Assembly: GCA_000992015.1 (NCBI GenBank)
Contig: LBSQ01000004.1
Coordinates: 1 to 35,033, forward strand
Reading direction: 5' to 3'
Length of the DNA: 35,033 nt
Source of the DNA: Parcubacteria group bacterium GW2011_GWA2_37_10
GTDB lineage: Bacteria > Patescibacteriota > Minisyncoccia > Minisyncoccales > Staskawiczbacteraceae
Position 1 is the stretch's first letter. The number at the start of each line of letters is the position of its first letter. Below the pieces are notes generated by a model. It searched no databases and was not told where the DNA came from. It saw only the letters and a program-made list of their open reading frames with translations. Below are positions 13,047-27,515 of this stretch, in pieces. The translations under genes were made by a program, and so were the position numbers.

Positions 13047-13075
13047 TTGACTTATTTTAAATAATATAATAGAAT
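13047..13075 (+). promoter_or_regulatory. candidate promoter of tuf-rpsJ
   Basis: TTGACT - 17 nt - TAGAAT. Confidence 0.55.
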
Positions 13076-13110
13076 ACAATAACATTATTATAAATTAAAC
13101 GAAGCAGGGC

Positions 13111-14358: not shown

Positions 14359-14360
14359 AA

Positions 14361-14783: not shown

Positions 14784-14806
14784 AAGTTTAGAAAAGTCCG
14801 AAAGTC

Positions 14807-14834
14807 TTGACAACAGGTTTGGATCTGCTATACT
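14807..14834 (+). promoter_or_regulatory. candidate promoter downstream of rpsJ
   Basis: TTGACA - 16 nt - TATACT with an extended -10 (TGc). Drives the tRNA-like gene and/or a short transcript ending at GTCCttcacgGGGCTTTTTT (about 14903-14923). Confidence 0.45.
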
Positions 14835-14954
14835 TAAATAAAGGCAGAGTAATCTATATAAACTATGGGTTATACTGTTGCTTGTCAGACAAAAGAGTCC
14901 TTCACGGGGCTTTTTTGTTTTTATATTTTTGATATAATAAATTTGTGGATCTGA

Positions 14955-15028
14955 GGGCCCGTAGTTTCATATAGTTAAAACTTTGCCTTTGACAAGCAAC
15001 GTAGCGGGTGCAACTCCCGCCGGGTCCA
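14955..15028 (+). tRNA. atypical tRNA-like gene; isotype ambiguous
   Basis: Acceptor GGGCCCG/CGGGTCC, D stem GTTT/AAAC, T arm GCGGG-TGCAACT-CCCGC, discriminator A. The anticodon stem TTGC(C)/(A)GCAA closes on a C.A mismatch, with loop UUUGACA. The 7-nt parse gives anticodon UGA with C37. A 9-nt loop parse puts GAC between U33 and A37. Confidence 0.5.
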
Positions 15029-15035
15029 CCCCAAA

Positions 15036-15064
15036 AAATCTGTCATTTTCTGACGGATTTTTTG
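15036..15064 (+). terminator. rho-independent terminator after the tRNA-like gene
   Basis: AAATCTGTCA ttttc TGACGGATTT, followed by further T residues. Confidence 0.7.
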
Positions 15065-15078
15065 TTTTCACCGCCTAG

Positions 15079-15107
15079 TTGGATTATTCTATTATTTTTG
15101 GTAGAAT
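15079..15107 (+). promoter_or_regulatory. candidate promoter of the 44-aa ORF
   Basis: TTGGAT - 17 nt - TAGAAT with an extended -10 (TGg). Confidence 0.5.
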
Positions 15108-15125
15108 AATATAAAGTAAAAAATT

Positions 15126-15260
15126 ATGTCAGAAGAATTAAAAAATTATTGTGAAGTTATTTTGACGGATTCAGAAAAATCAAAAGCCGAGCTGAAAAAA
15201 ATTTTAACAGAACACAAATTATCAATTCCCATTTTGCTGAAGTCAGAGTGGGAGAGGTAA
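15126..15260 (+). CDS. small hypothetical protein (44 aa)
   Basis: Not in the track. MSEELKNYCEVILTDSEKSKAELKKILTEHKLSIPILLKSEWER; native composition and a promoter upstream. Coding status uncertain. Confidence 0.35.
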   Translation: MSEELKNYCEVILTDSEKSKAELKKILTEHKLSIPILLKSEWER

Positions 15261-15280
15261 CCAGCAAGGCACTTGGACTG

Positions 15281-15309
15281 TTGACACGGAAACTAAAATA
15301 GACTATACT
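15281..15309 (+). promoter_or_regulatory. candidate promoter of rplC
   Basis: TTGACA - 17 nt - TATACT. Confidence 0.55.
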
Positions 15310-15441
15310 ATAAAATATACAATAAAGTTAGTTATTTACGCGATTGTTAACTTCCCAGCCTAAAGCTAAAGCATTATGGCGGGTAACAACATTGCTCCGA
15401 AGAATCGGGCAAGCGCCCGATTTTTCATTAGCAAAACAAAC

Positions 15442-16059
15442 ATGAAATTTATATTAGGTCAAAAAATAGGAATGTCCCAGTTGTTTGATAAAGACGGTAA
15501 AATGATACCGGTTACTTTGGTTTCGGCCGGGCCTTGCTATGTTCTGCAGAAAAAAACAAAAGAACCCTTCGACGCGGCTCATGGCAAGAAAGACGGATAT
15601 GACGCAGTTCAGATTGGATTTGAGAAAATTACAAAAATGAATAAGCTCAGAAAAAGCTGGAAAGCGAGACCGTATAAATATGTTAAGGAATTTAGAGCGC
15701 ATAATTCGGAAACAAAAGTGGGCGATGAAATTAATGTATCTGCTTTTTCTGAAGGTGAAAAAGTAAAGGTTTCGGGAATGTCAAAGGGAAAAGGTTTTCA
15801 AGGCGGAGTCAAAAAACACGGATTTTCAGGAAGAAATGCCACTCACGGAGTAAAACACGAACACAGAACAATTGGTTCAACAGGATGTCGTTTTCCCCAG
15901 CACGTAATGAAGGGAAGAAAAATGCCCGGACGCATGGGATATGAAAGAATATCGGTTAAAAATTTAAAAATAATGAAAGTTGATAAGGAGAATAATTTAT
16001 TAGTATTAAAAGGGGCGGTTCCAGGGCACAAAGGAACATTGCTTGAGATCCGAGTTTAA
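15442..16059 (+). CDS. rplC: 50S ribosomal protein uL3
   Basis: MKFILGQKIGMSQLFDKDGKMIPVT is the canonical uL3 N-terminus, so the track start at 15376 is rejected. GKGFQGGVKKHGF motif. Contains an in-frame GC-rich insert (PFDAAHGK). Confidence 0.93.
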   Translation: MKFILGQKIGMSQLFDKDGKMIPVTLVSAGPCYVLQKKTKEPFDAAHGKKDGYDAVQIGFEKITKMNKLRKSWKARPYKYVKEFRAHNSETKVGDEINVSAFSEGEKVKVSGMSKGKGFQGGVKKHGFSGRNATHGVKHEHRTIGSTGCRFPQHVMKGRKMPGRMGYERISVKNLKIMKVDKENNLLVLKGAVPGHKGTLLEIRV

Positions 16060-16075
16060 TATTTTACAAAAAAAG

Positions 16076-16121
16076 AGCGCCTCGGCTGGAACTCGATAAA
16101 TCAAATTTCAGCCAAGGCGCT
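16076..16121 (-). terminator. terminator hairpin of cassette D
   Basis: AGCGCCTCGGCTG - 20 nt - CAGCCAAGGCGCT (13 bp, 1 mismatch). On the minus strand it is followed by CTTTTTTTGT, and it lies 10 nt past the cassette D stop. Confidence 0.65.
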
Positions 16122-16131
16122 TAACTGACGG

Positions 16132-16395
16132 TCACACGTTTGTGAATGGCACGGACCGCCCTTCATGGGGTCTTTCGCCTGCGAAAGTCTGGGATTCCCT
16201 CCTCGTCGATGTCGGCAGAGACGCGGGGTCTGGTTTTTCGAGAATGACCTCGATGGTGTCACTCTTGATGCCGGCAATTGCGAAGCCCTGATCTTGCTCA
16301 GTCTTGAGCCTCTCTAAGGATTCGATACTGAAGCAATCCATAAAGTGCTCCGTAAAGCAATGCTTGATTCGTAGCTGGATTGTTTTCCACGACAT
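16132..16395 (-). CDS. small hypothetical protein (87 aa), GC-rich cassette D, antisense between rplC and rplD
   Basis: CAGGAG (16402-16407 on the plus strand) lies 6 nt before the internal ATG (16393-16395). The longer track start (16476) would run through its own promoter. Confidence 0.65.
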   Translation of the reverse strand: MSWKTIQLRIKHCFTEHFMDCFSIESLERLKTEQDQGFAIAGIKSDTIEVILEKPDPASLPTSTRRESQTFAGERPHEGRSVPFTNV

Positions 16396-16447
16396 AGTGA
16401 ACTCCTGTAGAAATGCAGGGTAATGCAGAGTGAAGACCAATAATAAA

Positions 16448-16476
16448 AGTATAATAGAATATAAAAGAAAAGTCAA
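16448..16476 (-). promoter_or_regulatory. candidate promoter of cassette D
   Basis: On the minus strand, TTGACT (16471-16476) - 17 nt - TATACT (16448-16453). It overlaps a plus-strand TATAAT/TAGAAT (16450-16460) that could serve rplD. Confidence 0.55.
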
Positions 16477-16494
16477 CCATATTAAAAGATTAAA

Positions 16495-17124
16495 ATGAAA
16501 GTCGATTTATATAATCAAAATGGGGAGGTTTCAGGAAGCACAGTATTGCCAAAGGAAATTTTTGAGGTAAAACTCAACGTTGATTTGGTGCATCAGATTG
16601 TTGTTTCTCAAATGGCAAACAAAAGGCAGATTTCAGCTCATACTAAAAACAGAGGAGAGGTTTCTGGCGGCGGGAAAAAACCATGGAGGCAAAAGGGAAC
16701 AGGACGGGCAAGGCACGGGTCAATTCGTTCTCCATTATGGAGAGGCGGCGGAATAACCTTTGGTCCCAGAAAAGACAAGGTTTATGAAAGGGAAATTCCC
16801 AAAAAAATGAGAAGAAAAGCATTATTTATGGTCCTGAGCCAGAAGGCGAAGGAAAAAAATTTAATTGTTTTGGACAAATTAGAAATGGCGGTTCCCGCAA
16901 CAAAAGAGATGGCAAAATCATTATCTAAACTTCCATGCAAGAGTCAAAGTTTGTTGATTGCTTTACCAAAGTATGATAAAAACGCATTTTTGTCAGCAAG
17001 GAATATCAAAAAAACAGGAATTTTTGAAGCAAGAAATTTGAATATTTTAGATTTAATGACATATAAATATTTATTATTGCCCAAGGAAGCAATTAAAGTT
17101 ATAAAAGAAACATTCTTAAAATAA
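16495..17124 (+). CDS. rplD: 50S ribosomal protein uL4
   Basis: GGGKKPWRQKGTGRARHGSIRSPLWRGGGITFGP. Confidence 0.95.
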   Translation: MKVDLYNQNGEVSGSTVLPKEIFEVKLNVDLVHQIVVSQMANKRQISAHTKNRGEVSGGGKKPWRQKGTGRARHGSIRSPLWRGGGITFGPRKDKVYEREIPKKMRRKALFMVLSQKAKEKNLIVLDKLEMAVPATKEMAKSLSKLPCKSQSLLIALPKYDKNAFLSARNIKKTGIFEARNLNILDLMTYKYLLLPKEAIKVIKETFLK

Positions 17125-17130
17125 ACACTT

Positions 17131-17220
17131 CGTCATTGCGAGGAGCCCGCAGGCGACGCGGCAATCTGGAAACTCTGGAATTGCTTCGTCAGTCGCTAAA
17201 GCTCCTTCCTCGCAATGACA
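17131..17220. repeat. P element copy P1: about 90-nt imperfect palindrome
   Basis: CGTCATTGCGAGGAGC...GCGACGCGGCAATCT / ...ATTGCTTCGTC...CCTCGCAATGACAG. The outer 12-bp arms GTCATTGCGAGG/CCTCGCAATGAC are perfect. Confidence 0.8.
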
Positions 17221-17229
17221 GATACGACT

Positions 17230-17691
17230 ATGGCGCTATTTGATTTTTTAAAAAGAAAAAAGGCAGCGGAGAAAGCAAAAAATCTCTATTCTGAATCTTC
17301 TATTCAGACGGGGCGTCGCGCCGAAGGCGCGAATATGCCGGTTAAAAAAACCGAAAATATTTTAATTAAAAAAGAAAAAAAGATTGAAAAACCGGTTGAA
17401 AAAAAATCAGTAAAAGGATTTTCTTATGATATAGTAAAAGAGCCGCATATTTCAGAAAAAGCGACAATTTTAGCCGAAGGTAATCAATATGTATTTAAAA
17501 TTAATGCCGACTCAAACAAAACAGAAATAAAAAAATCGATTGAAGGTGTTTATGGAGTAAATGTTTTATCAGTAAACATAATAAAAATTCCGAATAAAAA
17601 AAGAAAAATTGGAAAAATACAAGGATTTAAAAGCGGCCATACAAAAGCAGTAGTTAAAATTACTAAAGGCCAAAAAATAGAAATTCTATAA
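17230..17691 (+). CDS. rplW: 50S ribosomal protein uL23 with a Lys-rich N-terminal extension
   Basis: Core YDIVKEPHISEKAT...IKKSIEGVYGVNVLSVN. The start is ambiguous: 17215 (ATG inside the P1 terminus), 17230 (MALFDF...) or 17335 (MPVKK...). Confidence 0.85.
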   Translation: MALFDFLKRKKAAEKAKNLYSESSIQTGRRAEGANMPVKKTENILIKKEKKIEKPVEKKSVKGFSYDIVKEPHISEKATILAEGNQYVFKINADSNKTEIKKSIEGVYGVNVLSVNIIKIPNKKRKIGKIQGFKSGHTKAVVKITKGQKIEIL

Positions 17692-17789
17692 TGCGATGCC
17701 AATATACGAATGACATACTAATAATACGAATAAACGAAAAACGATAACGTATTAGTATAATTAGTATGAATTAGTATATTAGAATCGCA
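17692..17789. repeat. AT-rich long imperfect hairpin filling the rplW-rplB spacer
   Basis: TGCGAT...AATATAC...ATACTAAT...AATACG / CGTATT...ATTAGTAT (x3)...GTATATT...ATCGCA. Confidence 0.6.
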
Positions 17790-17794
17790 CTAAA

Positions 17795-18625
17795 ATGAAA
17801 ATATACAAACCTACAACACCATCAAGAAGGGGAATGACAGGGATAGATTTTTCCCAGTTGACAAAAAAGAAGGCAGAGAAAGGGCTTTTAAAATACATAA
17901 AAAGAAATGCGGGGAGAGGAAGCTCCGGAAGAATTACAGTAAGGCACAAAGGAGGCGGAGTAAAAAGACTTTACAGAATTATTGAATTTTCACAGACAAA
18001 ACAGAATTTACCGGCAGAAGTTATTGCTTTAGAATATGATCCTAATAGAACAGCATTTATTGCCTTGATAGAATATTCTGATAAAAAAAAGCAATATATT
18101 ATAGCTCCGCAAGGATTAAAGGTTGGAGATGCGGTTAATTTTTCCGGCAATGAAAATACTTTATTAACTCCGGGGAACAGAACGAAATTAAAAAATATAC
18201 CCGTTGGAACAATGGTTTATAATGTTGAATTGGATCCGGGAAAGGGTGGAAAAATTGTGAGGTCAGCTGGCAGTTCGGCGCAAGTATTAGCCCGTAATGG
18301 GGATTATGTAAACCTGAAGATGCCGTCAACAGAAATTAGAAAATTTTTAGGCGATTGTTTTGCTTCAATAGGAATGGTTTCAAATCCGGAAAATAGATTT
18401 TATACGTTTGGAAAAGCCGGAAAATCTCGCCTAAAAGGCAGAAGACCGCACGTAAGAGGCTCGGCAATGAATCCCGTTGACCATCCGCATGGAGGAGGCG
18501 AGGGCAGACAGCCAATCGGTTTAAAACATCCGAAAACTCCTTGGGGCAAGCCAGCTTTGGGGGTTAAAACAAGAAACAGAAAAAAGTGGTCAAATAAATT
18601 GATTATTCAAAGAAGGAAGAAATAA
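17795..18625 (+). CDS. rplB: 50S ribosomal protein uL2
   Basis: GRITVRHKGGG, VRGSAMNPVDHPHGGGEG. Confidence 0.97.
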   Translation: MKIYKPTTPSRRGMTGIDFSQLTKKKAEKGLLKYIKRNAGRGSSGRITVRHKGGGVKRLYRIIEFSQTKQNLPAEVIALEYDPNRTAFIALIEYSDKKKQYIIAPQGLKVGDAVNFSGNENTLLTPGNRTKLKNIPVGTMVYNVELDPGKGGKIVRSAGSSAQVLARNGDYVNLKMPSTEIRKFLGDCFASIGMVSNPENRFYTFGKAGKSRLKGRRPHVRGSAMNPVDHPHGGGEGRQPIGLKHPKTPWGKPALGVKTRNRKKWSNKLIIQRRKK

Positions 18626-18630
18626 AATTT

Positions 18631-18706
18631 CGTTATTGCGAGGAGCGTAGCGACGAAGCAATCTAAACAATGCGTGAGATTGCTTCGTTACCGCTCGCAA
18701 TGACGG
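18631..18706. repeat. P element copy P2: about 76-nt imperfect palindrome
   Basis: CGTTATTGCGAGGAGCGTAGCGACGAAGCAATCT - 12 nt - AGATTGCTTCGTTACCGCTCGCAATGACGG. Confidence 0.8.
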
Positions 18707-18721
18707 TTATACACTTATACA

Positions 18722-19060
18722 ATGAGCAGAAGTTTAAAAAAGGGTCCGTATATTGACCAAAATTTGTTGGAAAAAGTGCTGAAGCTGAGAAGGGATGAGA
18801 AGGTTATTATAAAAACCTGGGCAAGGTATTCCACAATTTCCCCGGAAATGGTGGGACATACCTTTGGAGTCCATAACGGGAAAGAATTTGTGCCGGTTTA
18901 CGTTTCAGAAGATATGGTCGGCCACAAGCTGGGAGAGTTTTCCCCAACAACAAAGTTTGTAAGGCATGGAGGAAAAATGCAGAGAGAAATAGAAGCCGGA
19001 GTTGAGCAAAAAGAGGCTGTCAAAACTGAAGCCGCGGTAAAATCCGGACCTAAAAAATAG
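18722..19060 (+). CDS. rpsS: 30S ribosomal protein uS19 (C-terminal extension)
   Basis: [35 protein letters not shown]. Confidence 0.95.
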
Positions 19061-19098
19061 ACATATCGCTACGTTAAAAACATATCGCTACGCTAATT
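19061..19098 (+). repeat. R2 motif, two tandem copies (ACATATCGCTACGTTAAAA / ACATATCGCTACGCTAATT)
   Basis: Direct tandem repeat immediately after the rpsS stop and before rplV. A third copy lies at 21805-21822. Confidence 0.7.
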
Positions 19099-19106
19099 TG
19101 CTAATT

Positions 19107-19451
19107 ATGGAAATTAAAGTAGAATTAAACAATTTAAGAACGGCGCCAAGAAAAGTAAGGCAGGTTGCAGACTTGGTCAGAGGCAAAAAGGCTTTGCAGG
19201 CGCAGACAATTCTTTCGTTCACAGTGAATAGATCCGCAGGAAATGTGTTGAAGCTTTTGAACTCGGCTGTTGCCTCTGCGAAACACGACTTTAAGCTGGA
19301 CGAATCAAATTTATATGTTTCCAGTATTTTTGTAAATGAAGGCCCGAAACTGAAAAGGTGGCACCCTATGTCCAGAGGAAGGGCGTATCCCATACAAAAG
19401 AAAACATCGCACATAACATTGGTGTTGAGCGAATTAATTCCGAAAATTTAG
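19107..19451 (+). CDS. rplV: 50S ribosomal protein uL22
   Basis: MEIKVELNNLRTAPRKVRQVADLVRGK. The track start at 19098 adds 3 atypical residues. Confidence 0.93.
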   Translation: MEIKVELNNLRTAPRKVRQVADLVRGKKALQAQTILSFTVNRSAGNVLKLLNSAVASAKHDFKLDESNLYVSSIFVNEGPKLKRWHPMSRGRAYPIQKKTSHITLVLSELIPKI

Positions 19452-19469
19452 AATTATAAATTTAACAAC

Positions 19470-20138
19470 ATGTCACATAAGGTTCACCCAAAAGCATTCA
19501 GAATAAAAGGAACAGAAGATTGGAATGTCCGCGGTTTTTATGGTAAAAAAATGTCTCAATACCTTGAAGAAGATTTTTTGATAAAAGATTTTTTGAAAGA
19601 AAAATTACGCGAGGCTTCAGTAGCCAACATTGAAATAGAACATTCAGCCAATAAATTAAATATCATTATTGAAACTGCGCGCCCCGGCTTAATAATCGGG
19701 AGGGGTGGAGAGGGCGTTGAAGTTTTAAAAAAAGTATTAGAAAAAAAGATACAGGAAAACAGGAGAAGAAACCGCTTGACCGTTGTACAAAAAAGAGAAA
19801 TAAAAATAGAGATAAGGGAAATAAAAAATCCGTGGATTTCAGCTTCATTGGTGGCTCAAATGGCTGCCCAGCAAATTGAAAAACGTATACCCTTCAGGCA
19901 GGTTTTAAAGAAAACAATAGAAAGAGTTATGTCTAACAGAGAGGTAAAAGGCATAAGAGCAGAGGTGTCAGGTCGATTAAACGGCATTGAAATTGCCAGA
20001 AAAGAATGGCTTCGACAAGGGCGGCTGCCAAGGAATACGATCAGGGCTGATATTGATTATGCGCAGACCGAAGCGCATTGCACATACGGAGCGATAGGAG
20101 TAAAAATTTGGATATATAAAGGAGAAAAATTCGAGTAA
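19470..20138 (+). CDS. rpsC: 30S ribosomal protein uS3
   Basis: HKVHPKAFRI, KH domain RPGLIIGRGGEG, GRLNGIEIAR. Confidence 0.96.
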   Translation: MSHKVHPKAFRIKGTEDWNVRGFYGKKMSQYLEEDFLIKDFLKEKLREASVANIEIEHSANKLNIIIETARPGLIIGRGGEGVEVLKKVLEKKIQENRRRNRLTVVQKREIKIEIREIKNPWISASLVAQMAAQQIEKRIPFRQVLKKTIERVMSNREVKGIRAEVSGRLNGIEIARKEWLRQGRLPRNTIRADIDYAQTEAHCTYGAIGVKIWIYKGEKFE

Positions 20139-20197
20139 AAACATCAACGTAAATTCGCTATCATCAATGTAATCAAAAAAGATATTTTAACACATAT

Positions 20198-20614
20198 ATG
20201 GGAATATTAATGCCGAAAAAAGTAAAACACAGGAAGTGGCACAGAGGAGTGTCCAAGGGAATTGAAACAAGAGCTACAGAGCTTAACTTTGGAAGTTTTG
20301 GTTTGAAGTCCTTGGGAACAAAATGGATTACAGCAAGGCAGTTAGAGGCTTCAAGACGTCATATAATAAGATACCTGAAAAAAGGCGGAAAGCTTTGGAT
20401 AAGGGTTTTTCCTGATAAACCGGTAACTTTTAAAGGATCTGAAGTGGGAATGGGCGGCGGAAAAGGAGGAGTTGACCATTATGTTTATCCAATAAAGCCC
20501 GGCCGTATTATTTTTGAGTTGGACGGCATAAAGGAGGAAATTGCAAAAGAGGCCCTTGAAGGAGCTGCCAATAAACTGCCTATTAAAACTAAATTTATTA
20601 AAAGAGAAGAATAA
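20198..20614 (+). CDS. rplP: 50S ribosomal protein uL16
   Basis: MPKKVKHRKWHRG...ITARQLEASRR...WIRVFPDKPVT. The start could be 20198 or 20210. Confidence 0.94.
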   Translation: MGILMPKKVKHRKWHRGVSKGIETRATELNFGSFGLKSLGTKWITARQLEASRRHIIRYLKKGGKLWIRVFPDKPVTFKGSEVGMGGGKGGVDHYVYPIKPGRIIFELDGIKEEIAKEALEGAANKLPIKTKFIKREE

Positions 20615-20617
20615 AAA

Positions 20618-20803
20618 ATGAAGACAGCAGAGCTTAGAAAAAAAGATAAAAAAGAATTGGAAAAAATAGTTTTGGATTTGAGAAAAAAGCTGAGCGATAT
20701 CAGGTTTAAATTTTCCTCCAATAAGTTGAAAAATGTTAAAGAGATAAATAATACAAAAAAAGACATAGCCAGAATATTAACTATATTAAAAGAAAATGTC
20801 TAA
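20618..20803 (+). CDS. rpmC: 50S ribosomal protein uL29
   Basis: [21 protein letters not shown]...R, its size, and its position. Confidence 0.9.
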
Positions 20804-21032
20804 GAAAATATTAACAGGCAAAGTGGTTTCCGATAAAATGCAAAAAACTGTTGTTGTGCAGGTTGAAAGGGTAAAAGAGCATCCGAAATATAAGAGAAGA
20901 TATAAAATCCACAAAAAATATAAAGCCCACGATGAGAAAGGTGAATTTCATATCGGAGATACGGTTGTCATTGAAGAGACAAACCCGATTTCAAAAGATA
21001 AAAAATGGAGAGTGATAAATAAAGTAAAATAG
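20796..21032 (+). CDS. rpsQ: 30S ribosomal protein uS17
   Basis: [26 protein letters not shown]...KKYKAHDE; 8-nt overlap with rpmC. Confidence 0.94.
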
Positions 21033-21033
21033 C

Positions 21034-21402
21034 ATGATTCAATTACGTTCAATGTTAAAAGTCGCAGATAATACTGGAGCAAAAATTATCCAATGTATTA
21101 ATGTGCCCGGAGGAACACGCAGGAGATATGCTCAGCTGGGCGATATTATTGTTGCAGTTGTAAAAAAAGCAGAACCAAGAAAATTGGTAAAAAAACACGA
21201 AAAAGTAAAGGCAGTAATTATCAGGCAAAGAAAGGAATATAAAAGGAGTGACGGTTCTTATATTCGTTTTGACGATAACGCAGCAGTGATATTAGGCGAC
21301 GGAAAGGCTCCGAAAGGGAGCAGAATTTTAGGGCCTGCGGCAAAAGAATTAAAAGACAAGGGCTTTGATAAAATTGCCATGATGGCAAGCGAATTATTAT
21401 AA
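21034..21402 (+). CDS. rplN: 50S ribosomal protein uL14
   Basis: [17 protein letters not shown]...IRFDDNAAV. Confidence 0.97.
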
Positions 21403-21404
21403 AA

Positions 21405-21458
21405 GGAATATCCCTCGCCTGCGGGCTCGGGATGATTTTTTCACTTCGTTCACAAATC
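21405..21458 (+). repeat. R1 leader element, copy 2 (rplX)
   Basis: ATCCC-TCG-CCTGCGGG-CTC-GGGAT hairpin. The mini-ORF ATG (21432) ATT TTT TCA CTT CGT TCA has CAA instead of TAA, so it reads through into rplX. Confidence 0.8.
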
Positions 21459-21803
21459 ATGAAAATTAAAAAAGGCGATAACGTTTTGATAATATCAGGC
21501 AAAGATAAGGGCAGGACCGGCAAGGTGTCAAGGGCTTTTCCTAAAGAAGGGGGTATTTTAGTAGAAGGAATTAATTTAAAAAAGAAGCACGTAAGACCGA
21601 AAAAGGAAGGAGGAAAAGGGCAGGTCGTTGACATTCCGGCAGCGATAGAAGTTTCAAATGTTAAAATAATTTGCCCGAAATGCGGAAAGGCAGTGAGAGT
21701 TGGATATAAAATTGACCCTTCGGCAGGCTTCGGCGCGGCTCAGGGCAAGCGCTCAGGGCAAGCGAAAAAGAGAATTTGTAGAAAATGTAAGCAAGAAGTA
21801 TAA
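21459..21803 (+). CDS. rplX: 50S ribosomal protein uL24 (in-frame GC-rich insert near the C-terminus)
   Basis: MKIKKGDNVLIISGKDKGRTGKV is the canonical uL24 N-terminus. The track start at 21432 would add MIFSLRSQI from the R1 mini-ORF. Confidence 0.9.
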   Translation: MKIKKGDNVLIISGKDKGRTGKVSRAFPKEGGILVEGINLKKKHVRPKKEGGKGQVVDIPAAIEVSNVKIICPKCGKAVRVGYKIDPSAGFGAAQGKRSGQAKKRICRKCKQEV

Positions 21804-21804
21804 T

Positions 21805-21822
21805 ATATCGCTACGTTAAAAA
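21805..21822 (+). repeat. R2 motif, copy 3 (ATATCGCTACGTTAAAAA), abutting the rplE ATG
   Basis: Identical 18-mer to 19063-19080. Confidence 0.7.
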
Positions 21823-22386
21823 ATGGAAAAATTAAAGGAAAAGTATAAAAAAGAGGTAATTCCCGCCATGATGAAAAAGTTTGGATATAAAAATCCGATG
21901 GCTGTTCCGCGCATAAAGAAAATTATGTTGAATAGTTCCTTTGGCAAGGAGGTTGCAAGCAAAACCGCAGGAGAGCGGGAAAAAATACAAAACTTAATTA
22001 TGCAGGATTTATCTCTAATAGCCGGGCAAAGAACAAAATTAGTGAAATCAAAAAAATCCATCGCGGGATTTAAATTAAGGGAAGGTCTGGAAATTGCCGC
22101 AACGGTTACTTTGAGAAAGAGCAGAATGTGGGATTTTTTGGAAAGGCTGATTTTTCTGTCTCTGCCAAGATCCAGGGATTTTAAGGGGCTTGACCCAAAA
22201 ATAATAGATAAAGGGGGAAATTTAAACATCGGATTCAGAGAGCACATTTCCTTTCCGGAAATTTTTACTGAAAAAGAGAAAACTATTTTCGGTCTGCAAA
22301 TAACAGTGGTCACAAATGCGAAAAACAAAGAAGAAGGATTAGAGATGTATAAATTAATGGGATTCCCAATGAGGGAAGCAAAATAA
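21823..22386 (+). CDS. rplE: 50S ribosomal protein uL5
   Basis: LKEKYKKEVIPAMMKKFGYKNPMAVPRIKKI...SIAGFKLREG...NIGFREH. Confidence 0.96.
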   Translation: MEKLKEKYKKEVIPAMMKKFGYKNPMAVPRIKKIMLNSSFGKEVASKTAGEREKIQNLIMQDLSLIAGQRTKLVKSKKSIAGFKLREGLEIAATVTLRKSRMWDFLERLIFLSLPRSRDFKGLDPKIIDKGGNLNIGFREHISFPEIFTEKEKTIFGLQITVVTNAKNKEEGLEMYKLMGFPMREAK

Positions 22387-22392
22387 AAAAGA

Positions 22393-22453
22393 ACACTTCC
22401 GCTTCGGTAAAAACCTCAGTGTAAGTGTGATTTACTCGCTTCGCTCATAAATC
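22393..22453 (+). repeat. R1 leader element, copy 3 (rpsN)
   Basis: ACACT...AGTGT outer stem (alternative CACTT...AAGTG), inner CCGcttCGG. Mini-ORF GTG ATT TAC TCG CTT CGC TCA TAA (22427-22450), then ATC and the ATG at 22454. Confidence 0.75.
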
Positions 22454-22639
22454 ATGGCAAAAAAATCACAGGAAATAAAAGCAAAAAAGAAGCCTAAATA
22501 TCCATCGAGAAAAATTCGGCGCTGTTTTAAATGCGGAAGGCGGCATGGTTTTATGAGAGCATTCGGACTATGCAGAATATGCTTTAGGGAATTAGCAAAT
22601 AAAGGCGAAATTCCCGGCGTTAAAAAATCTTCTTGGTAA
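22454..22639 (+). CDS. rpsN: 30S ribosomal protein uS14, zinc-binding short form
   Basis: 61 aa with CFKCGRRHG...CRICFRE. Confidence 0.95.
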
Positions 22640-22662
22640 CCCTTCAATAAATTCAGGGTAAT
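22636..22662 (+). repeat. R1 hairpin-1-only fragment before rpsH
   Basis: GGTAACCCTTCaataaatTCAGGGTAAT, compared with copy 4 GGTAACCCTTCgtcccgccttatgggacTCAGGGTGAT. ACCCT/AGGGT is retained; the mini-ORF is absent. Confidence 0.55.
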
Positions 22663-22672
22663 AACAAAAACT

Positions 22673-23062
22673 ATGATAGACCCAATAACAGACATGTTAA
22701 ATCAAATAAGGAATGCCCAGGCTGTACAGAAGCCAGAAGTTTCTATTCCTTTTTCAAACCTGAAATATGAGGTTGCAAAAGTTTTAGTTCAAGAGGGGCT
22801 AATAAGCGAAGTAAAAAAGGCTGCCAAAGGAAAGAACAAAATAATGAAAATTGTTTTGAAATATGATAATGGAATTTCTGCGATTTCCGGTTTAAGGAGA
22901 ATATCAAAACCAGGTCAGAGAATTTATGGAAAATGGTCAGAAATAAAAAGAGTTCGCGGAGGATATGGAATATCGGTAGTTTCAACCCCAAAAGGATTAA
23001 TGACGAACAAAGAAGCGCGGAAACAAAAATTGGGGGGAGAAGTTTTATTAGAAATTTGGTAA
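22673..23062 (+). CDS. rpsH: 30S ribosomal protein uS8
   Basis: DPITDMLNQIRNA, GGEVLLEIW. Confidence 0.96.
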   Translation: MIDPITDMLNQIRNAQAVQKPEVSIPFSNLKYEVAKVLVQEGLISEVKKAAKGKNKIMKIVLKYDNGISAISGLRRISKPGQRIYGKWSEIKRVRGGYGISVVSTPKGLMTNKEARKQKLGGEVLLEIW

Positions 23063-23070
23063 TAAAAATT

Positions 23071-23601
23071 ATGTCAAGAATAGGAAAAAAACCAATTGAA
23101 ATACCAGAGGGAGTCACCGCAACATTAGCCGGCGAGGTTTTGAATGTTACGGGCCCCAAAGGAGAATTAAAAAGGGAAATTAACCGCAATGTAAGAATTG
23201 AAATTAAAGACGGAAAGATTTTGGTTTTATCTGAAAAAGGAAATTTATGGGGATTGTATAGGGCTTTAGTTTCAAATATGGTTGAGGGGGTAAGCAAAGG
23301 ATTTGAAAAAAAGCTGGAGATCGAAGGAGTCGGTTTTAAGGCAATGGCGGACGTTGAGGGTTTGACATTAAATGTCGGTTTTACAAATCCGGTTAAAATA
23401 AAAAAACCGGAAGGCATTGATTTTTTGGTGGAAAAAAATGTCATTACGGTTTCCGGAATAAATAAAGAGCTGGTGGGGCATGTTGCCTCGCTGGTGAGAA
23501 AGGCTAAAAAAGCTGAACCTTATAAAGGAAAGGGAATAAAATATCAAGGCGAAAAAATTAGAAGAAAAGAAGGTAAAAAAGTTGTAGCGGCAAAAAAATA
23601 A
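23071..23601 (+). CDS. rplF: 50S ribosomal protein uL6
   Basis: [15 protein letters not shown] is the canonical N-terminus, so the track start at 22933 (inside rpsH) is rejected. Confidence 0.95.
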
Positions 23602-23602
23602 C

Positions 23603-23950
23603 ATGATAACAAAAAAAGAAAAAAGACAAAGAAGGCATAAAAAAATCAGATCAAAAATAAGCGGCACTTTAAAAATGCCGCGGCTTTGTGTTTTCAGATC
23701 GCTTAATCACATTTATGCGCAATTACTTGATGACGGCAAAGCAAAAGTTTTATTATCAGCCTCCGACAGAGAAATAAAGGACGCAAAACTCACAAAATCT
23801 GCCGTTGCAAATGAAGTGGGAAAATTAATTGCAAAAAAATGCGCCGAAAAGAAAATTGAAAAAGTTGTTTTTGATAGGGGCGGGATTGTCTATCACGGCA
23901 GAATAAAAGCGCTGGCCGACGGAGCAAGAGAAGGCGGACTCATATTCTAA
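23603..23950 (+). CDS. rplR: 50S ribosomal protein uL18
   Basis: [12 protein letters not shown]...[16 protein letters not shown]...[22 protein letters not shown]. Confidence 0.95.
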
Positions 23951-24157
23951 TTTCAAATTTACAATTTACAATTAGAACCACTTCGCTCCGCTCGTTGTAA
24001 TTCTGCGGAATTAAGTGAAATCAATTTTAAATGTTTAAATAACTAAATTTGAAAACACAGCGTGTTTTAATCATTTCAAATTAGATAAATTCGAATTGAA
24101 TTCAAATTTAAAATTATCCCTACGGGGAGCAAGCAATCAAATTAAAAATTAAATATT

Positions 24158-24781
24158 ATGGCAGAAGACAAAGTGGTCGTAGACCAAATAAAAAAATCAA
24201 ATGATGGTTTTGTGCCTATTCCTACCGGCGAGCCAACAGCTCCTCGTGTTGGTTTTGGTCATGGGCAAGGGCAGAGAGGCGGGGGATTCGGGCAAAATAG
24301 AAAACCCGGCTTTGGACGCGCAGGCCTTGGCAGAGGGGCGCCAAAAGACGAGTTTGAGTCAAAGCTTTTAGACTTAGCCCGAGTTACAAGAGTTACAGGA
24401 GGCGGAAAGAGGATGAGTTTTAGGGCAGTTGTGGTTGCCGGAGATAAAAAAGGAAAAATTGGTATCGGCATAGACAAAGGAAAAGATGTTTCTCAGGCGA
24501 TTGAGAAAGCCACCCGCAAAGCGAAAAAGAATTTAGTAAGTGTTATTATTACAGAAGGAACTATTCCTTATCAGGTTGAAGCAAAGGCGGGACCTGCGCA
24601 AATTTTACTGAAACCTCAGAAAAAGGGAAGAGGTTTAGTTGCAGGCGGAGCTGTGAGGACTATTTGCGAATTGGCCGGCATAAAAAATATTTCTTCAAAA
24701 ATTCTTTCCGGTTCTAAAAACAAACTTAACAATGCAATGGCGACAATGGAAGCATTGAAGAAATTAAAAGCAAAGAGTTAG
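24158..24781 (+). CDS. rpsE: 30S ribosomal protein uS5 with a Gly/Arg-rich N-terminal extension
   Basis: RVTRVTGGGKRMSFRAVVVAGD, GIGIDKGKDV, LKPQKKGRGLVAGG. Confidence 0.95.
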   Translation: MAEDKVVVDQIKKSNDGFVPIPTGEPTAPRVGFGHGQGQRGGGFGQNRKPGFGRAGLGRGAPKDEFESKLLDLARVTRVTGGGKRMSFRAVVVAGDKKGKIGIGIDKGKDVSQAIEKATRKAKKNLVSVIITEGTIPYQVEAKAGPAQILLKPQKKGRGLVAGGAVRTICELAGIKNISSKILSGSKNKLNNAMATMEALKKLKAKS

Positions 24782-24840
24782 GTAACCCTTCGTCCCGCCT
24801 TATGGGACTCAGGGTGATTTATTCACTTCGTTCATAAATC
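24782..24840 (+). repeat. R1 leader element, copy 4 (rplO)
   Basis: ACCCT-TCG-TCCCgccttatGGGA-CTC-AGGGT. Mini-ORF GTG ATT TAT TCA CTT CGT TCA TAA (24814-24837), then ATC and the ATG at 24841. Confidence 0.8.
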
Positions 24841-25272
24841 ATGCAAATACACGAACTAAAACCAAAGCATAAAAACAGGGATAAAAAGCGGGTCGGCAGA
24901 GGAGGAAAAAAGGGTACTTATTCCGGAAAAGGAAATAAAGGCCAAAGTTCAAGAGCCGGCAGAAAAATGGTGCCCATAATCAGGGAATTGATAAAAAGGT
25001 ATCCAAAATTAAGAGGATACAGAAGATTTGTTCTGAAAGATTTTTCAGTTGTAGTAAGCCTTGACGTCCTAGAAAAAAATTCAAAAAACGGCGAAATAAT
25101 CAATCCTGAAAATTTGATTAAAAATGGAATTGTCCGTATGATAAAAGGAAAGGTTCCAAAAATTAAGATATTGGGTTCCGGAAAACTTACAAAACCGCTT
25201 ACTGTTGAAAATTGTAAAGTTTCAAAGTCGGCGAAAGACGCAATTGAAAAAGCCGGCGGTATTATAAAGTAA
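24841..25272 (+). CDS. rplO: 50S ribosomal protein uL15
   Basis: LKPKHKNRDKKRVGRGGKKGTYSGKGNKGQ. It follows rpsE directly, so there is no rpmD. Confidence 0.94.
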   Translation: MQIHELKPKHKNRDKKRVGRGGKKGTYSGKGNKGQSSRAGRKMVPIIRELIKRYPKLRGYRRFVLKDFSVVVSLDVLEKNSKNGEIINPENLIKNGIVRMIKGKVPKIKILGSGKLTKPLTVENCKVSKSAKDAIEKAGGIIK

Positions 25273-25297
25273 TTTTAATTTTTATTAAAAAACTAAA

Positions 25298-25672
25298 ATG
25301 GAAATTACTGATAAAATTAAAAATATAATTGATGAAATCGTCAGGCAATACAGGCCAGAAAAAATCATACTTTTTGGTTCTTTTGTATGGGGAAATCCAA
25401 ACAAAGATAGCGATATTGATTTATTTATAATAAAACAGAGTCAGAAAAGTAGAATTGAGCGCCAAAGAGAATTGAGGTTAAAACTTTTTGGCTCTGACTT
25501 CCCCGCAATGGATATTTTGGTTTACACCCCAGAGGAAGTTGAAAAAAGCATCAATGAATATAAAAATCTTTTTATAGAAGATATTTTGCGCCATGGAAAG
25601 GTTCTTTATTCTAAACCAGGAAGCCTATTTAATGTAGCGCTTCCTAAAAGGCGATTAAATATTTTGCATTAA
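25298..25672 (+). CDS. nucleotidyltransferase-domain protein (MNT-type, putative antitoxin)
   Basis: LFGSFVWGNPNKDSDIDL is the GSxxxGx(n)DxD motif of the Pol-beta NTase fold. Small size and pairing with a HEPN gene. Confidence 0.8.
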   Translation: MEITDKIKNIIDEIVRQYRPEKIILFGSFVWGNPNKDSDIDLFIIKQSQKSRIERQRELRLKLFGSDFPAMDILVYTPEEVEKSINEYKNLFIEDILRHGKVLYSKPGSLFNVALPKRRLNILH

Positions 25673-25678
25673 ATTATT

Positions 25679-26062
25679 ATGCTAACAGATTATGTAAAAA
25701 GCTGGTTTCAGCGGGCAGATGAAGATTTAGCGCTTATTGAAGTTATCTTAAAGGAGGAATCTTTTTCTCCTAACCCAGTTTGTTTTCATGCTCAGCAGGC
25801 GGCAGAAAAATATCTGAAAGGATTTCTAGCTTATCACGATTTGCACACGAGAAAAATTCACGATTTGGAAGCGCTTGTTGAGGACTGCGTAAAAATTGAT
25901 AAATCTTTTGGGGCGCTAAAAGATAGCGCAGGATTTTTAGATCAGTTTTATATTGGATCGCGCTACCCAGATGATTATATAGAATTTTCCCGAAATGACG
26001 CAAAAAAAGCATACGAAGCGGCAATTAAAATCAAAAATTTTATTTTAGGAAAAATTAAATAA
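25679..26062 (+). CDS. HEPN-domain protein (putative toxin partner of the MNT gene)
   Basis: All-helical, 127 aa, with AEKYLKGFL...HDLEAL...GSRYPDD features typical of HEPN (PF05168-like). Starts 6 nt after the MNT stop. Confidence 0.75.
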   Translation: MLTDYVKSWFQRADEDLALIEVILKEESFSPNPVCFHAQQAAEKYLKGFLAYHDLHTRKIHDLEALVEDCVKIDKSFGALKDSAGFLDQFYIGSRYPDDYIEFSRNDAKKAYEAAIKIKNFILGKIK

Positions 26063-26182
26063 AGATTATCAAAAAAGTAAATCATTTATTTTGGGGTTAT
26101 AGTTCAGAAATGCCAAATTATAAAATTTATAATCAAATTCTTTCCACTTTTAAATTTATAAAATAAAAATTAAAAATAGCAA

Positions 26183-26237
26183 GGCATACCCTTCGCCTGC
26201 GGGACTCAGTGTGATTTTCTCGCTTTGCTCGTAAATC
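26183..26237 (+). repeat. R1 leader element, copy 5 (secY)
   Basis: ACCCT-TCG-CCTGCGGGA-CTC-AGTGT. Mini-ORF GTG ATT TTC TCG CTT TGC TCG TAA (26211-26234), then ATC and the ATG at 26238. Confidence 0.8.
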
Positions 26238-27515
26238 ATGTGGTACGATAAAATATTATTTTTATTTAAAAGCAAAGACCTTAGAAAAAAATTTCTTATT
26301 GTAATTTTTCTTTTTGTTGTTTTTAGGATAGCTGCCAATATACCTATTCCGGGAATTGGACTGGAAAACTTAAGGAAGTTTTTTGCCGAAAATCAGGTTT
26401 TCGGTTTGTTAAATATATTTTCAGGCGGAGCTCTGAGTAATTTTTCCATTGTTTTGTTGGCGCTTGGGCCATATATTACAGCTACGATTATTTTGCAATT
26501 GCTGACAATGATTTTTCCTGCGCTGGAAAGAATATACAAAGAAGAGGGCGAAGCCGGCAGGCAAAAATTTAATCAATACTCAAGGCTTTTAACCATTCCG
26601 CTAGCCGTTTTTGAAGGTTACGGAATGATAACTTTATTCCAACGCCAAGGAATAATTTCATCTCTTCCAATATCTGTTTTGATAAGTTCAATTCTAACAA
26701 TTACCGCGGGCGCAATGTTTATGATGTGGATCGGTGAAATTATTACAGAGCAGGGAATGGGAAACGGAATTTCACTTCTGATCTTTGCAGGAATAGTTGC
26801 AACACTGCCGATTAATATTTTTCAAACATTTGTCGCATGGGATCCGTCAAAAATTCCCTCGTATTTTTTATTTTTTGTATTATCCTTGGTTATTATAGCC
26901 GGTGTAGTTTTAATTACTGAAGCCAGAAGAAATATTCCGGTTTCTTATGCAAAAAGGGTAAGGGGAAATAAAATGTACGGCGGCGTTTCTACATATCTGC
27001 CTTTAAATGTTAATCCGGCCGGAGTTATTCCAATTATTTTTGCTCTCTCTATACTTTTGTTTCCGGGAATGATAGCAAGTTTTTTGGGCGGAACCCCCGG
27101 ATTTGTTGGAACAGTTGCAACTGCCGCCGGAGCTTTTTTCAACAACATTTGGGTGCACGGAATATTATATTTTTTGCTGGTTATTTTATTCACCTATTTT
27201 TATACCGCGGTCACTTTTGACCCAAAAACAATTGCTGAAAATTTGCAAAAAATGGGCGGTTTTATCCCGGGCGTAAGGCCAGGAAATTCAACGGCCGTTT
27301 TTCTAAAGCATATACTAAACAGAGTTTTGTTTACCGGGGCCATATTTTTGGGACTAATTGCTGTTCTGCCGTCAATTATTGCCGGAGCGACAGGCGTAAC
27401 CGGTTTTACATTCTTAATCGGAGGAACATCTCTTTTAATCGTGGTTTCAGTTGTTTTAGACACAATGCGCCAAATTAACGCGCAATTGCAAATGCGCGAA
27501 TACGACACTTTCTAA
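26238..27515 (+). CDS. secY: preprotein translocase subunit SecY
   Basis: 10 TM helices, LGPYITATIILQLL, GEIITEQGMGNGISLLIFAGI. Confidence 0.96.
   Translation: MWYDKILFLFKSKDLRKKFLIVIFLFVVFRIAANIPIPGIGLENLRKFFAENQVFGLLNIFSGGALSNFSIVLLALGPYITATIILQLLTMIFPALERIYKEEGEAGRQKFNQYSRLLTIPLAVFEGYGMITLFQRQGIISSLPISVLISSILTITAGAMFMMWIGEIITEQGMGNGISLLIFAGIVATLPINIFQTFVAWDPSKIPSYFLFFVLSLVIIAGVVLITEARRNIPVSYAKRVRGNKMYGGVSTYLPLNVNPAGVIPIIFALSILLFPGMIASFLGGTPGFVGTVATAAGAFFNNIWVHGILYFLLVILFTYFYTAVTFDPKTIAENLQKMGGFIPGVRPGNSTAVFLKHILNRVLFTGAIFLGLIAVLPSIIAGATGVTGFTFLIGGTSLLIVVSVVLDTMRQINAQLQMREYDTF

Follow-up and report, generated by a model that had tools for sequence, protein, structure and literature searches.

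A 24-nucleotide GC-rich repeat in frame within ribosomal protein genes of a Staskawiczbacteria-like bacterium, a probable dispersed passenger

Rickettsia palindromic elements (RPEs), reportedly described by Ogata and colleagues in Science in 2000, are 100-150 bp long and plainly palindromic. They share the AT-richness of their host and occur only in Rickettsia and its relatives, and no transposase is known to be associated with them. The even shorter bacterial REP repeats are thought to be moved by single-strand DNA transposases (RAYT). Here we analysed the 35,033-nucleotide contig LBSQ01000004.1 (the window, that is, the whole stretch of DNA under analysis), whose plus strand carries the str/S10/spc-type ribosomal operons of a Candidatus Staskawiczbacteria-like bacterium, and in which short GC-rich segments lie inside the genes of ribosomal proteins uL3, uL24 and uS10. 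We consider it fairly probable that these three segments are copies of one dispersed, frame-neutral mini-repeat, named F1, that is translated as a surface loop and is a selfish or neutral passenger rather than a module of ribosome function.

F1 was defined by the core CC-CTTCG-(4-6 nt)-GCTCAGGGCAA-G, which amounts to 24 nucleotides (nt) with a 5-nt spacer; its copies measure 23-25 nt, and up to 48 nt when nested. A sequence-only reading of the window had proposed that GC-rich hairpins akin to hairpin 1 of a leader repeat, R1, were inserted in frame in the genes of uL24, uL3, uS10, uL23 and a bL28-like protein. The segments read as it had described. The uL3 insert is CCCTTCGACGCGGCTCATGGCAAG and encodes PFDAAHGK, uL24 reads ACCCTTCGGCAGGCTTCGGCGCGGCTCAGGGCAAGC at 21715-21750 with the 13-mer GCTCAGGGCAAGC at 21738-21750 and again at 21751-21763, the reverse complement of the uS10 core is CCCTTCGCTGTTGCTCGGGG, and uL23 carries TCGCGCC-GAA-GGCGCGA at 17316-17332 (other coordinates are in Table 1). 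The uL3 and uL24 segments agree at 20 of 24 positions in their best ungapped match, as had been claimed, and 0 of 200,000 composition-preserving shuffles reached this value. Additionally, the inserts are 60-74% GC, and the remainder of the same genes is 27-40% GC.

For the comparison with relatives, a protein scan with uS3, keeping one genome per species, gave 80 loci, the nearest of which belong to Candidatus Staskawiczbacteria and other Patescibacteria with uS3 identities of 68-89%. Independent metagenome assemblies L084-L086 and L090-L094 come from the same species as the window (identity 99.5-100%), and L081 comes from another species whose DNA is about 78% identical to the window. In uL3, alignment to the B. 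subtilis protein opened a single 8-residue gap, LQKKTKE(PFDAAHGK)KDGY, in agreement with the proposed insertion relative to orthologues. The insert, 67% GC, was missing from all 68 genome relatives, and 101 of 120 database homologues had the empty spacing; three of the 120 carried an 8-residue insert (PFDAAHGK, PFDAAQGK and PFSAIGSK), and a few others carried different inserts there. It stands between the codons GAA and AAA, and comparison with the empty site of L081 revealed neither a target duplication nor a flank deletion. The empty site reads AAAGAG/AAAGAA, with the insertion point at the slash, and holds no local template for the insert. Locus L087 has the same element at the same site with CAG for CAT, which is the consensus form CCCTTCGACGCGGCTCAGGGCAAA, and L088, whose uL3 is the most similar (86% identity), has a different 33-nt GC-rich hairpin at the same nucleotide position. 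A low-confidence structure model places the uL3 insert in a loop between strands 32-38 and 55-59. Peptides predicted from translation to span an insert junction include IDPSAGFGAAQGK and TKEPFDAAHGK.

The uL24 insert is 73% GC in a gene that is otherwise 37% GC, and it stands at the tip of the C-terminal CxxC...CxxC beta-hairpin (zinc ribbon), whose four cysteines are invariant. All 72 genome relatives lacked it, reading CPKCGK..RVGYKIE-GDKK-xRICKKC where the window reads YKID-(PSAGFGAAQGKRSGQA)-KKRICRKC. In the AlphaFold2 model the insert falls in the loop that separates strands 81-84 and 104-107, and the predicted local distance difference test (pLDDT) is below 50 at residues 89-100. Among database homologues the site was found empty (P0003, EGDKKVRIC), in a short form (P0002, with PSAGSGQG where the window has 16 residues) and in the long form of the window (P0001); many other Staskawiczbacteria-like uL24 proteins have PS[AT]GSGQ[AV] there. 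Alignment to the short form of L081 (CCCTTCGGCGG^GCTCAGGGCAAGG) opened one 24-nt gap. On these alignments, the uL24 insert can be read as an older short element, present at the same site in the other species, plus a nested 24-nt unit that has the same frame as the uL3 insert and is closely identical to it. Internal repeats make the placement of the 24 extra nt ambiguous, so that they are either a nested unit or duplications of 11 nt and 13 nt that jointly preserve the frame.

These two inserts bear on a local origin, in which slippage or duplication with GC-biased repair at fragile A-rich loops would have produced segments that resemble one another by coincidence. The internal duplications of uL24 (the 13-mer twice and CTTCGGC twice) fit such an origin, as does the standing of these loops as indel hotspots, where many unrelated inserts occur. 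We already disfavour it and hold it to be very improbable, since the uL3 insert has no template at its site, the match between the two genes was beyond every shuffle, and exact 21- to 24-mers are shared with unrelated contigs.

Within the species, L084 and L085 have EGDKKV in place of the uL24 insert. Over 12.3 kb these two contigs match the window at 99.5% identity, and nearly all of the difference is the uL24 patch; outside it they differ by about 13 substitutions in 12.3 kb (about 99.9% identity). The insert is therefore polymorphic within a population that is about 99.9% identical, and the comparison of these assemblies demonstrates, at the level of sequence, gain, loss or exchange at this site on the timescale of a single species. 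Three transitions within 7 nt (21692, 21694 and 21698) stand about 20 nt upstream of the insert. There the window encodes KAVRVG, and both L086, which has the insert, and L084, which does not, encode KAARVG; elsewhere the window differs from these two by roughly one substitution per kb. That the inserts are artefacts of assembly or sequencing has practically negligible probability. Short GC-rich repeats can cause local misassembly, and relative to a same-species contig the window is short of about 106-108 nt at each of two places in another repeat family, but several projects assembled the uL3 and uL24 inserts independently and identically (L086, L090-L094 and L103), and the inserts lie in frame and recur, conserved though diverged, in other species.

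The uS10 copy is antisense and belongs, like the uL23 segment, to lineage-specific stretches of variable, lysine-rich N-terminal extensions; the uS10 of L081 is 12 residues shorter. It matches CCTTCG-N5-GCTCRKGG (0.00 expected) and aligns to the full length of R1, through the hairpin-2-like TTCGCTCCGCTC, although the R1 covariance model did not reach E <= 1 on it. It also aligns to an intergenic copy in L011 (1320-1385), with which it has in common the 3' extension GGGTAAGTGTTC..CGCTCCCTTAT. Taken together, the alignments show that the inserts arrived after these genes had diverged from their orthologues. They stand in frame at loop tips or in terminal extensions, the host open reading frames (ORFs) are intact, and the loop positions are those of the AlphaFold2 models.

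The motif was enriched over shuffled sequence when both of its parts were required. CCTTCG-N4-26-CTCAGG was observed 4 times against 0.02 expected, and CCTTCG-N3-8-GCTCRKGG 2 times against 0.00 expected, whereas the 12-mer GCTCAGGGCAAG alone, with up to 2 mismatches, occurred 4 times against 1.46 expected in the window, which was not significant. The residues were thus not ancestral and the motif not merely compositional, the two points on which the sequence-only reading had staked its proposal. Its description of the inserts as hairpin modules stood for uS10 (z = -2.7 on the sense mRNA strand), uL23 and some R1 copies, and was not upheld by folding for uL3 (z = +0.44) and uL24 (z = +0.35), which fold no better than shuffles; in the core CCCTTCG...GCTCAGGGCAAG, only a 4-bp CCCT/AGGG stem is conserved. 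Similarly, the idea of a repeat that entered coding sequence without breaking frames was upheld in so far as the inserts are lineage-specific, GC-rich, mutually similar and, in uL3 and uL24, in the same frame. Frame preservation, in contrast, is largely built in and by itself no sign of selection, because the unit is 24 nt long and has no stop in any sense frame.

R1 is a composite leader, in which hairpin 1 is followed by hairpin 2 (TGATTT...AAATCA) running into the ATG. In hairpin 1, the outer stem (A/C)CCT / AGG(G/A)T leads through a TC/TC internal loop to an inner stem that varies, its pairs changing in a compensating manner between copies (GCC/GGC, GTCCCG/TGGGAC and GGT/ACC). Repeat finding gave five copies in the window and the covariance model six. 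The proposed kinship with R1 was borne out for uL3, uL24 and uS10, which have the CCTTCG ... (G)CTCAGG core around a variable inner stem, and not for the uL23 and bL28-like hairpins, from which this core is absent; the uL3 and uL24 copies hold a hairpin-1-like sequence only. Since R1-type leaders also precede the orthologous tuf, uS14 and secY in other genera, R1 is, on sequence grounds, a partly conserved leader at orthologous positions and not simply a colonising repeat. Such leaders were found before tuf, uS14, secY and uL2 in L004, L008, L011 and L023, each ending in ...AAATCATG. A search of Rfam for R1 and F1 returned only tRNA at the gathering threshold and, at E <= 1 over 13000-26400, only a partial tmRNA-like match at a tRNA-like gene; neither repeat corresponds to a known RNA family. 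A Shine-Dalgarno-like sequence is missing upstream of most window genes. The 3' arm of hairpin 2 in R1 leaders reaches right up to the start codon, and AGGA lies in the 3' arm of hairpin 1; R1 may be a leader that presents the start site, with hairpin 2 bringing the AGGA of hairpin 1 close to the ATG. In L081, uL16, uL24 and uL15 are preceded by a composite leader repeat of another kind, GGCAATCAAATTTTTT-hairpin-AAAAAATTTATTGCCTCGCTT (about 8600-8680, 9920-10000 and 13350-13429), which occupies some of the operon positions at which the window has R1.

We aligned 29 conserved genes of the window and the 80 loci and collected lineage-specific inserts of at least 4 residues. As a result, 164 inserts were obtained, 22% of which were at least 60% GC, against 5% of length-matched control segments from the same genes (Mann-Whitney p = 3e-7). 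In L081, the identical sequence CCCTTCGGCGGGCTCAGGGCAAG stands in uL2 and uL24, and a third copy, CCCTTCGACTTCGCTCATGGCAAG, stands in triosephosphate isomerase (Pfam TIM). At position ~97 of uL2, L017 has CCGTCGACAAGCTCAGGGCAA (PSTSSGQ), related forms occur in L005, L011 and L081, and L021 has a different element (LGMPAGR). L013 carries SFDFAQDK in uL4, L033 has CCCTTCGACGCGGCTCAGGGCAAG in another gene, and L011 has four copies, two of which share a GCAA spacer, a sample too small for a test of copying within the genome. Other GC-rich hairpins were seen in relatives in EF-G, uL23, the gene downstream of adk and the ORF that corresponds to window position 22673. A loose regular expression gave 36 matches in 1.34 Mb against about 9 in shuffles of local composition. 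A census of 10-mers across the loci was set aside because it was confounded by gene homology.

The repeat extends well beyond this clade. The exact 21-mer variant CTTCGRCGCGGCTCAKGGCAA occurs in at least 120 metagenome contigs of 30-73% GC. For the low-GC contigs, the matches listed comprised 45 distinct contexts, in which the two preceding bases were CC in 96% and the next base was G in 93%. These flanks argue for a 24-nt unit with sharp ends. Among the same matches, 41 of the 45 copies lay within ORFs of at least 100 residues, and 39 of these 41 were oriented in sense (p = 3e-7, tested against the 3:2 ratio that open frames would give). Since a first clustering of sites had chained through the element's own peptide, we clustered on flanking protein sequence only, and the listed matches then reduced to about 30 sites, with 24 of 26 in ORFs of at least 100 residues in sense (p = 3e-4). 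The putative hosts, read from the flanking peptides, include RecR, TsaD, RecG, TatD, a HemK-like methyltransferase and a phosphoribosyltransferase. The family consensus, with a free spacer of 4-6 nt, was found in 60 viral contigs, one with at least 4 copies, and its commonest spacers were ACAA and ACAG. The suggested tie to highly expressed genes did not survive these counts, nor is F1 tied to this genome, as it also occurs in non-ribosomal genes, in other hosts and in viral contigs. In a cultured organism, the plasmid of Gloeothece PCC 7822 has the variant CACTTCGACAAGCTCAGTGCAAGC at eight places; apart from it, BLAST against isolate plasmids and phages returned weak matches (E about 0.2-0.8), mostly due to chance. 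AAGCAAA stands on either side of one metagenome copy (L097), and the others show no such duplication. We found no description of F1 in the literature searched (repeats of the candidate phyla radiation, miniature inverted-repeat transposable elements or MITEs, and motif and peptide strings). Its translations are presumably familiar from hypothetical proteins of metagenome bins.

The orientation of these copies is one reason to consider that F1 and R1 hairpin 1 act as a sense mRNA motif, such as a binding or processing site or a stabiliser of operon transcripts, with the peptide as a tolerated by-product. The bias among the matches listed (39 of 41, and 24 of 26 clustered sites), the six R1 copies that are all in sense directly upstream of starts and kept at orthologous leaders in other genera, the compensating changes in the inner stem and the 19 core bases kept across very different hosts would all suit such a role. 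An RNA-level element nevertheless seems unlikely to us, given that shuffles fold as well as the uL3 and uL24 inserts, that the uS10 copy runs antisense and that near-identical strains differ in presence or absence with no compensating change; the sites, moreover, are protein loops in unrelated genes and not regular operon positions.

All three sense frames are used among the listed matches, namely LRRGSGQ (24 times), PF[GD]AAQGK (13 times, one of them PFDAAHGK) and PSTRLRA (2 times). Copies in both orientations and in every sense frame speak against convergence at the protein level. This bears on the view that the inserts are adaptive expansion segments, selected as loops that offset missing proteins or rRNA helices, with the DNA likeness arising from peptide and codon choice. 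Predicted positions at exposed loops and extensions, and the recurrence of PS[AT]GSGQ-type peptides at the uL24 site in many species, accord with selection, and unusual ribosomal protein lengths have been reported for bacteria of this group in a paper that does not describe the repeats (PMC9297842). One DNA unit, however, is read in three frames and antisense into unrelated peptides, F1 is found also in non-ribosomal genes and intergenic DNA, the uL24 insert is dispensable within the species, and the codons are GC-rich in a 37% GC genome. For these reasons we judge adaptive expansion to be quite improbable.

The 23-nt-core copies (L081 uL24 and uL2) keep the frame only by read-through, and their precise removal would shift it; on this ground we infer that the inserts are translated. 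The opposite case, in which they are bypassed by the ribosome or removed from the mRNA, as with bypass elements of yeast mitochondria or short archaeal introns, appears scarcely credible. GC-rich structured inserts in AT-rich coding sequence do resemble the bypass elements of Magnusiomyces, and introns in rRNA genes are known in the group (PMC9297842). On the other side, no copy has a stop codon or breaks the frame, the 23-nt-core copies do not allow precise removal, the uL3 insert lacks matching take-off and landing codons at its flanks, and the insert peptides are conserved across species at the uL24 site.

For F1 as a dispersed passenger, we propose the following course. Existing copies of F1 would give rise to new ones at A-rich sites not occupied before, with no duplication of the target. 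A sense insertion would never interrupt its host ORF, as its length is a multiple of three and it has no stop in the sense frames. The unit would then be translated as a small, flexible surface loop rich in Gly, Ala, Ser, Gln and Pro, which would be tolerated there, and later it would drift, duplicate internally or be replaced.

Several points weigh against this interpretation. No mobilising enzyme, terminal inverted repeats or target-site duplication was found, so that we infer mobility from distribution only. The window has only three coding copies, in uL3, uL24 and uS10. Different GC-rich elements stand at the same sites in sister lineages (uL3 in L088, TIM and uL2 ~97), and these loops could simply tolerate anything; the recurrence of different elements at uL3, uL2 ~97, TIM and the uL24 tip may reflect structural tolerance, targeting or replacement. 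The uL24 difference within the species is a replacement, 16 nt against 55 nt, and no clean insertion, and it could have arisen by gain, by loss or through recombination with another lineage over a very short tract. The near-identity of 19 bases across contigs of 30-73% GC is hard to fit to neutral drift and hints at a constraint of function or recognition, and the sense bias could reflect a role at the RNA level; the metagenome matches listed were chosen by exact match, which inflates their apparent conservation. As a purely neutral passenger leaves the sense bias and the 19 conserved bases unexplained, an RNA-level function or a strand-specific insertion keeps its place beside it, one possibility for the latter being single-strand DNA transposition coupled to replication. 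A bolder version would make F1 a mobile micro-element that ranges over bacterial phyla and, with its length of about 24 nt, is the smallest unit known to propagate itself. A conserved activity, which could be templated by single-stranded DNA or RNA, would insert it with strand preference into chromosomes and phages, and F1 would be a major ongoing source of new surface loops in proteins of uncultured bacteria, ribosomal ones included; we find this possible, yet on balance doubtful.

F1 looks like a so far undescribed source of new protein loops. The 19 bases kept across hosts of 30-73% GC and phage contigs, the sharp ends, the lack of target duplication and the sense bias form a pattern that points to a mechanism of insertion or maintenance. 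If the passenger interpretation is true, part of the diversity of loops and extensions in proteins of the candidate phyla radiation, including ribosomal proteins used as phylogenetic markers, would come from the spread of a repeat at the DNA level and not from selection on the protein. It would then bear on the trimming of marker alignments, the reading of 'low-complexity' peptides in metagenomic proteomes and the calling of strain variation.

The remaining GC-rich segments of the window belong to F1 less clearly or not at all. The uL23 segment, 74% GC against 27% in the rest of the gene, folds well (-17.4 kcal/mol, z = -2.1), but it has in common with the uL24 unit only an 11-nt half-site, CCTTCGGCGCG, on the reverse complement, which leaves its proposed membership of the family unproven. 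The palindrome in the bL28-like ORF (69% GC against 33%), also counted by the sequence-only reading among the related modules, represents a different GC-rich family, whose relatives include PAGRQ-type inserts in uS10 and uL2 of L021. Searches of PDB and Pfam did not confirm the bL28 identity of this ORF. A 59-nt, very GC-rich near-palindrome, GGAGGCGGGGGCCCGCCCCCGCCGCCTCC, at 3536-3594 within the ORF 3094-5148 looks like a further in-frame GC-rich hairpin insert. At the uS14/uS8 junction (22639-22661, ACCCTTCAATAAATTCAGGGTAA) there is a CCCT..AGGG outer stem as in F1 and R1 hairpin 1, with an AT-rich interior. A motif match in uL4 (16833-16852, minus strand) was rejected as an insert, being conserved coding sequence (LSQKAKE) common to the relatives.

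The window is AT-rich (about 37% GC), with a positive GC skew all along, and the genes follow the order uS12, uS7, fusA, tuf, uS10, uL3, uL4, uL23, uL2 ... uL24, uL5 ... uL15, secY, adk, map. A nucleotidyltransferase/HEPN pair (Pfam NTP_transf_2 and HEPN, assigned on the same-species L084) lies between uL15 and secY at 25298-26062, and L081 lacks the pair. The uL3-uL4 spacer (16060-16494, 435 nt) and the uS10-uL3 spacer (14784-15441, about 660 nt) are unusually long and have GC-rich patches; L081 and L088 have nearly no uL3-uL4 spacer, and for that of the window we found no Rfam match and no similar sequence in the other loci. Downstream of fusA, about 440 nt at 12040-12480 are GC-rich and ORF-poor and have no Rfam match, and weak conservation was seen for parts of the fusA-tuf spacer in L010, L011, L018 and L081; this region may be a non-coding RNA that lacks annotation. 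The tRNA-like gene (14955-15030, plus strand) lies in the S10 operon between uS10 and uL3. It was called by ARAGORN as tRNA-Ser(tga) of 76 nt without a long variable arm, matched in Rfam only part of tmRNA below threshold (E = 2.4e-6), and has an 80% identical copy in L032. Just upstream of the likely uL3 start (15442), a terminator-like hairpin at 15406-15425 reads CGGGCAAGCGCCCG and then TTTTT. It falls within a longer ORF that starts at 15376, and such a stretch is kept upstream of uL3 in many relatives (L004, L009, L021, L029, L081 and L088); it may be an attenuator akin to the S10 leader.

Two more observations concern intergenic repeats. Part of the uL18-uS5 spacer (24016-24115) matches the tuf-uS10 spacer of L081 at 90% identity, the two positions not being orthologous, and resembles a further intergenic module that has been transposed. 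The inverted termini GTCATTGCGAGG...CCTCGCAATGAC mark a second repeat family, MITE-like and about 100 nt long. Upstream of fusA the window lacks 106 nt that are present in the same-species L090, and only TCGCAATGAC remains. At the 3' end of fusA it lacks 108 nt relative to L090, so that about the last 24 codons (FTMEFNKYEQVPGNIAQEIIEGKRK) are gone and the ORF is fused to a repeat copy. These differences are either a real deletion variant or an assembly collapse.

Table 1. Coordinates of the inserts, leaders and repeats discussed, in window positions unless a locus is named.
Feature	Position	Strand	Description
uL3 insert	15565-15588	+	24 nt, residues 42-49 from ATG at 15442
uL24 insert	21716-21763	+	48 nt, encodes PSAGFGAAQGKRSGQA, residues 87-102 from ATG at 21459
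Nested or duplicated 24-nt unit in uL24	21728-21751	+	CTTCGGCGCGGCTCAGGGCAAGCG, extra in window relative to L081 short form
uL24 site of L081			other species; TTGA-CCCTTCGGCGGGCTCAGGGCAAGG-CAAAAAG-AGAATT
uL24 site of L084, L085			same species; TTGA-AGGTGACAAAAAAGTC-AGAATT
uS10 N-terminal extension	14391-14434	-	antisense R1-like composite; core CCCTTCGCTGTTGCTCGGGG at 14415-14434, then 3' extension GTAAGTGTTCGCTCCGCTCCCTTAT
R1 upstream of tuf	13111-13164	+	ATCCT-TC-GCC-TGCG-GGC-TC-AGGAT; hairpin 2 TGATTTA...TAAATCA; 80.9 bits
R1 upstream of uL24	21408-21461	+	covariance model 77.7 bits
R1 upstream of uS14	22397-22456	+	hairpin 1 inner stem GGT/ACC; 59.2 bits
R1 upstream of uL15	24783-24843	+	ACCCT-TC-GTCCCG...TGGGAC-TC-AGGGT; z = -2.55; 71.9 bits
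R1 upstream of secY	26186-26240	+	70.9 bits
Sixth, weaker R1-type leader	34155-34238	+	expanded hairpin 1, ends in ATG at 34236; 30.2 bits, E = 0.0015
uL23 N-terminal extension hairpin	17310-17334	+	perfect 7-bp TCGCGCC-GAA-GGCGCGA, encodes GRRAEGA
bL28-like ORF palindrome	7613-7651	-	GCCTGCCTGC / GCAGGCAGGC, perfect, GC-rich, encodes LPACAGRPSG; ORF of 67 aa, 7563-7766
Triosephosphate isomerase (TIM) insert	30388-30422	+	SALCGPASGWEE, GC-rich, yet another family; L081 has CCCTTCGACTTCGCTCATGGCAAG at the same site
MITE-like family sites	17130-17215, 18632-18700, 11925-11996, 9896-9905; L090 4297-4402, 6434-6541

Set beside the described systems, F1 resembles the RPEs in being a dispersed repeat that stands between genes and, in frame, within coding genes including essential ones, that is translated at protein surfaces and that varies between close relatives. 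Multiple intergenic and intragenic copies were found here too (uL3, uL24, uS10 and the R1 leaders in the window, three copies in L081 and four in L011), and in-frame insertion into intact ORFs is seen at positions that AlphaFold2 models predict to be surface loops. F1 differs in its length of 23-25 nt, its GC-richness in an AT-rich host, its weak folding, its sense bias and its presence in contigs of 30-73% GC and in viral contigs. It has neither the length of 100-150 bp, nor the long palindrome, nor homology to the RPE consensus, and the host is Staskawiczbacteria-like and not a member of the Rickettsiales.

The GC clusters of yeast mitochondria, including that of var1, are likewise short, GC-rich in an AT-rich genome, polymorphic and translated in frame in a ribosomal protein gene. 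They are, however, palindromes of 30-50 bp with characteristic flanks, known from fungal mitochondria only, and their sequences are unrelated to F1, which shows no target duplication. The REP/BIME/REPIN repeats share with F1 a very short length (20-40 nt), an interspersed and strand-biased distribution and the lack of target-site duplication, but they are almost exclusively extragenic and species-specific, form good palindromes with a GTAG-like head, and co-occur with a RAYT gene. Among the matches listed, 41 of the 45 low-GC copies of F1 lie in ORFs; F1 has no GTAG-type head, and no transposase was seen in the 35-kb window.

Bypass elements ('byps' of Magnusiomyces mitochondria, and T4 gene 60) are also short, GC-rich, structured and apparently mobile inserts in AT-rich coding sequence. 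They break the frame or contain stops and have to be skipped, whereas every examined F1 copy is stop-free and reads through in frame, and the uL3 insert has no matching flanking codons. MITEs, of which a similar family occurs in the same window, are like F1 non-autonomous short repeats with presence/absence polymorphism; they exceed 50 nt and have terminal inverted repeats and target-site duplications, while in F1 the uL3 junctions (GAA-insert-AAA) show no duplication and the ends CCCTTCG and GGGCAAG are not inverted repeats. In behaviour, F1 is closest to the RPEs and the var1 GC clusters, and it belongs to neither, differing in size, sequence and host range as well as in its weak palindromy and strand bias.

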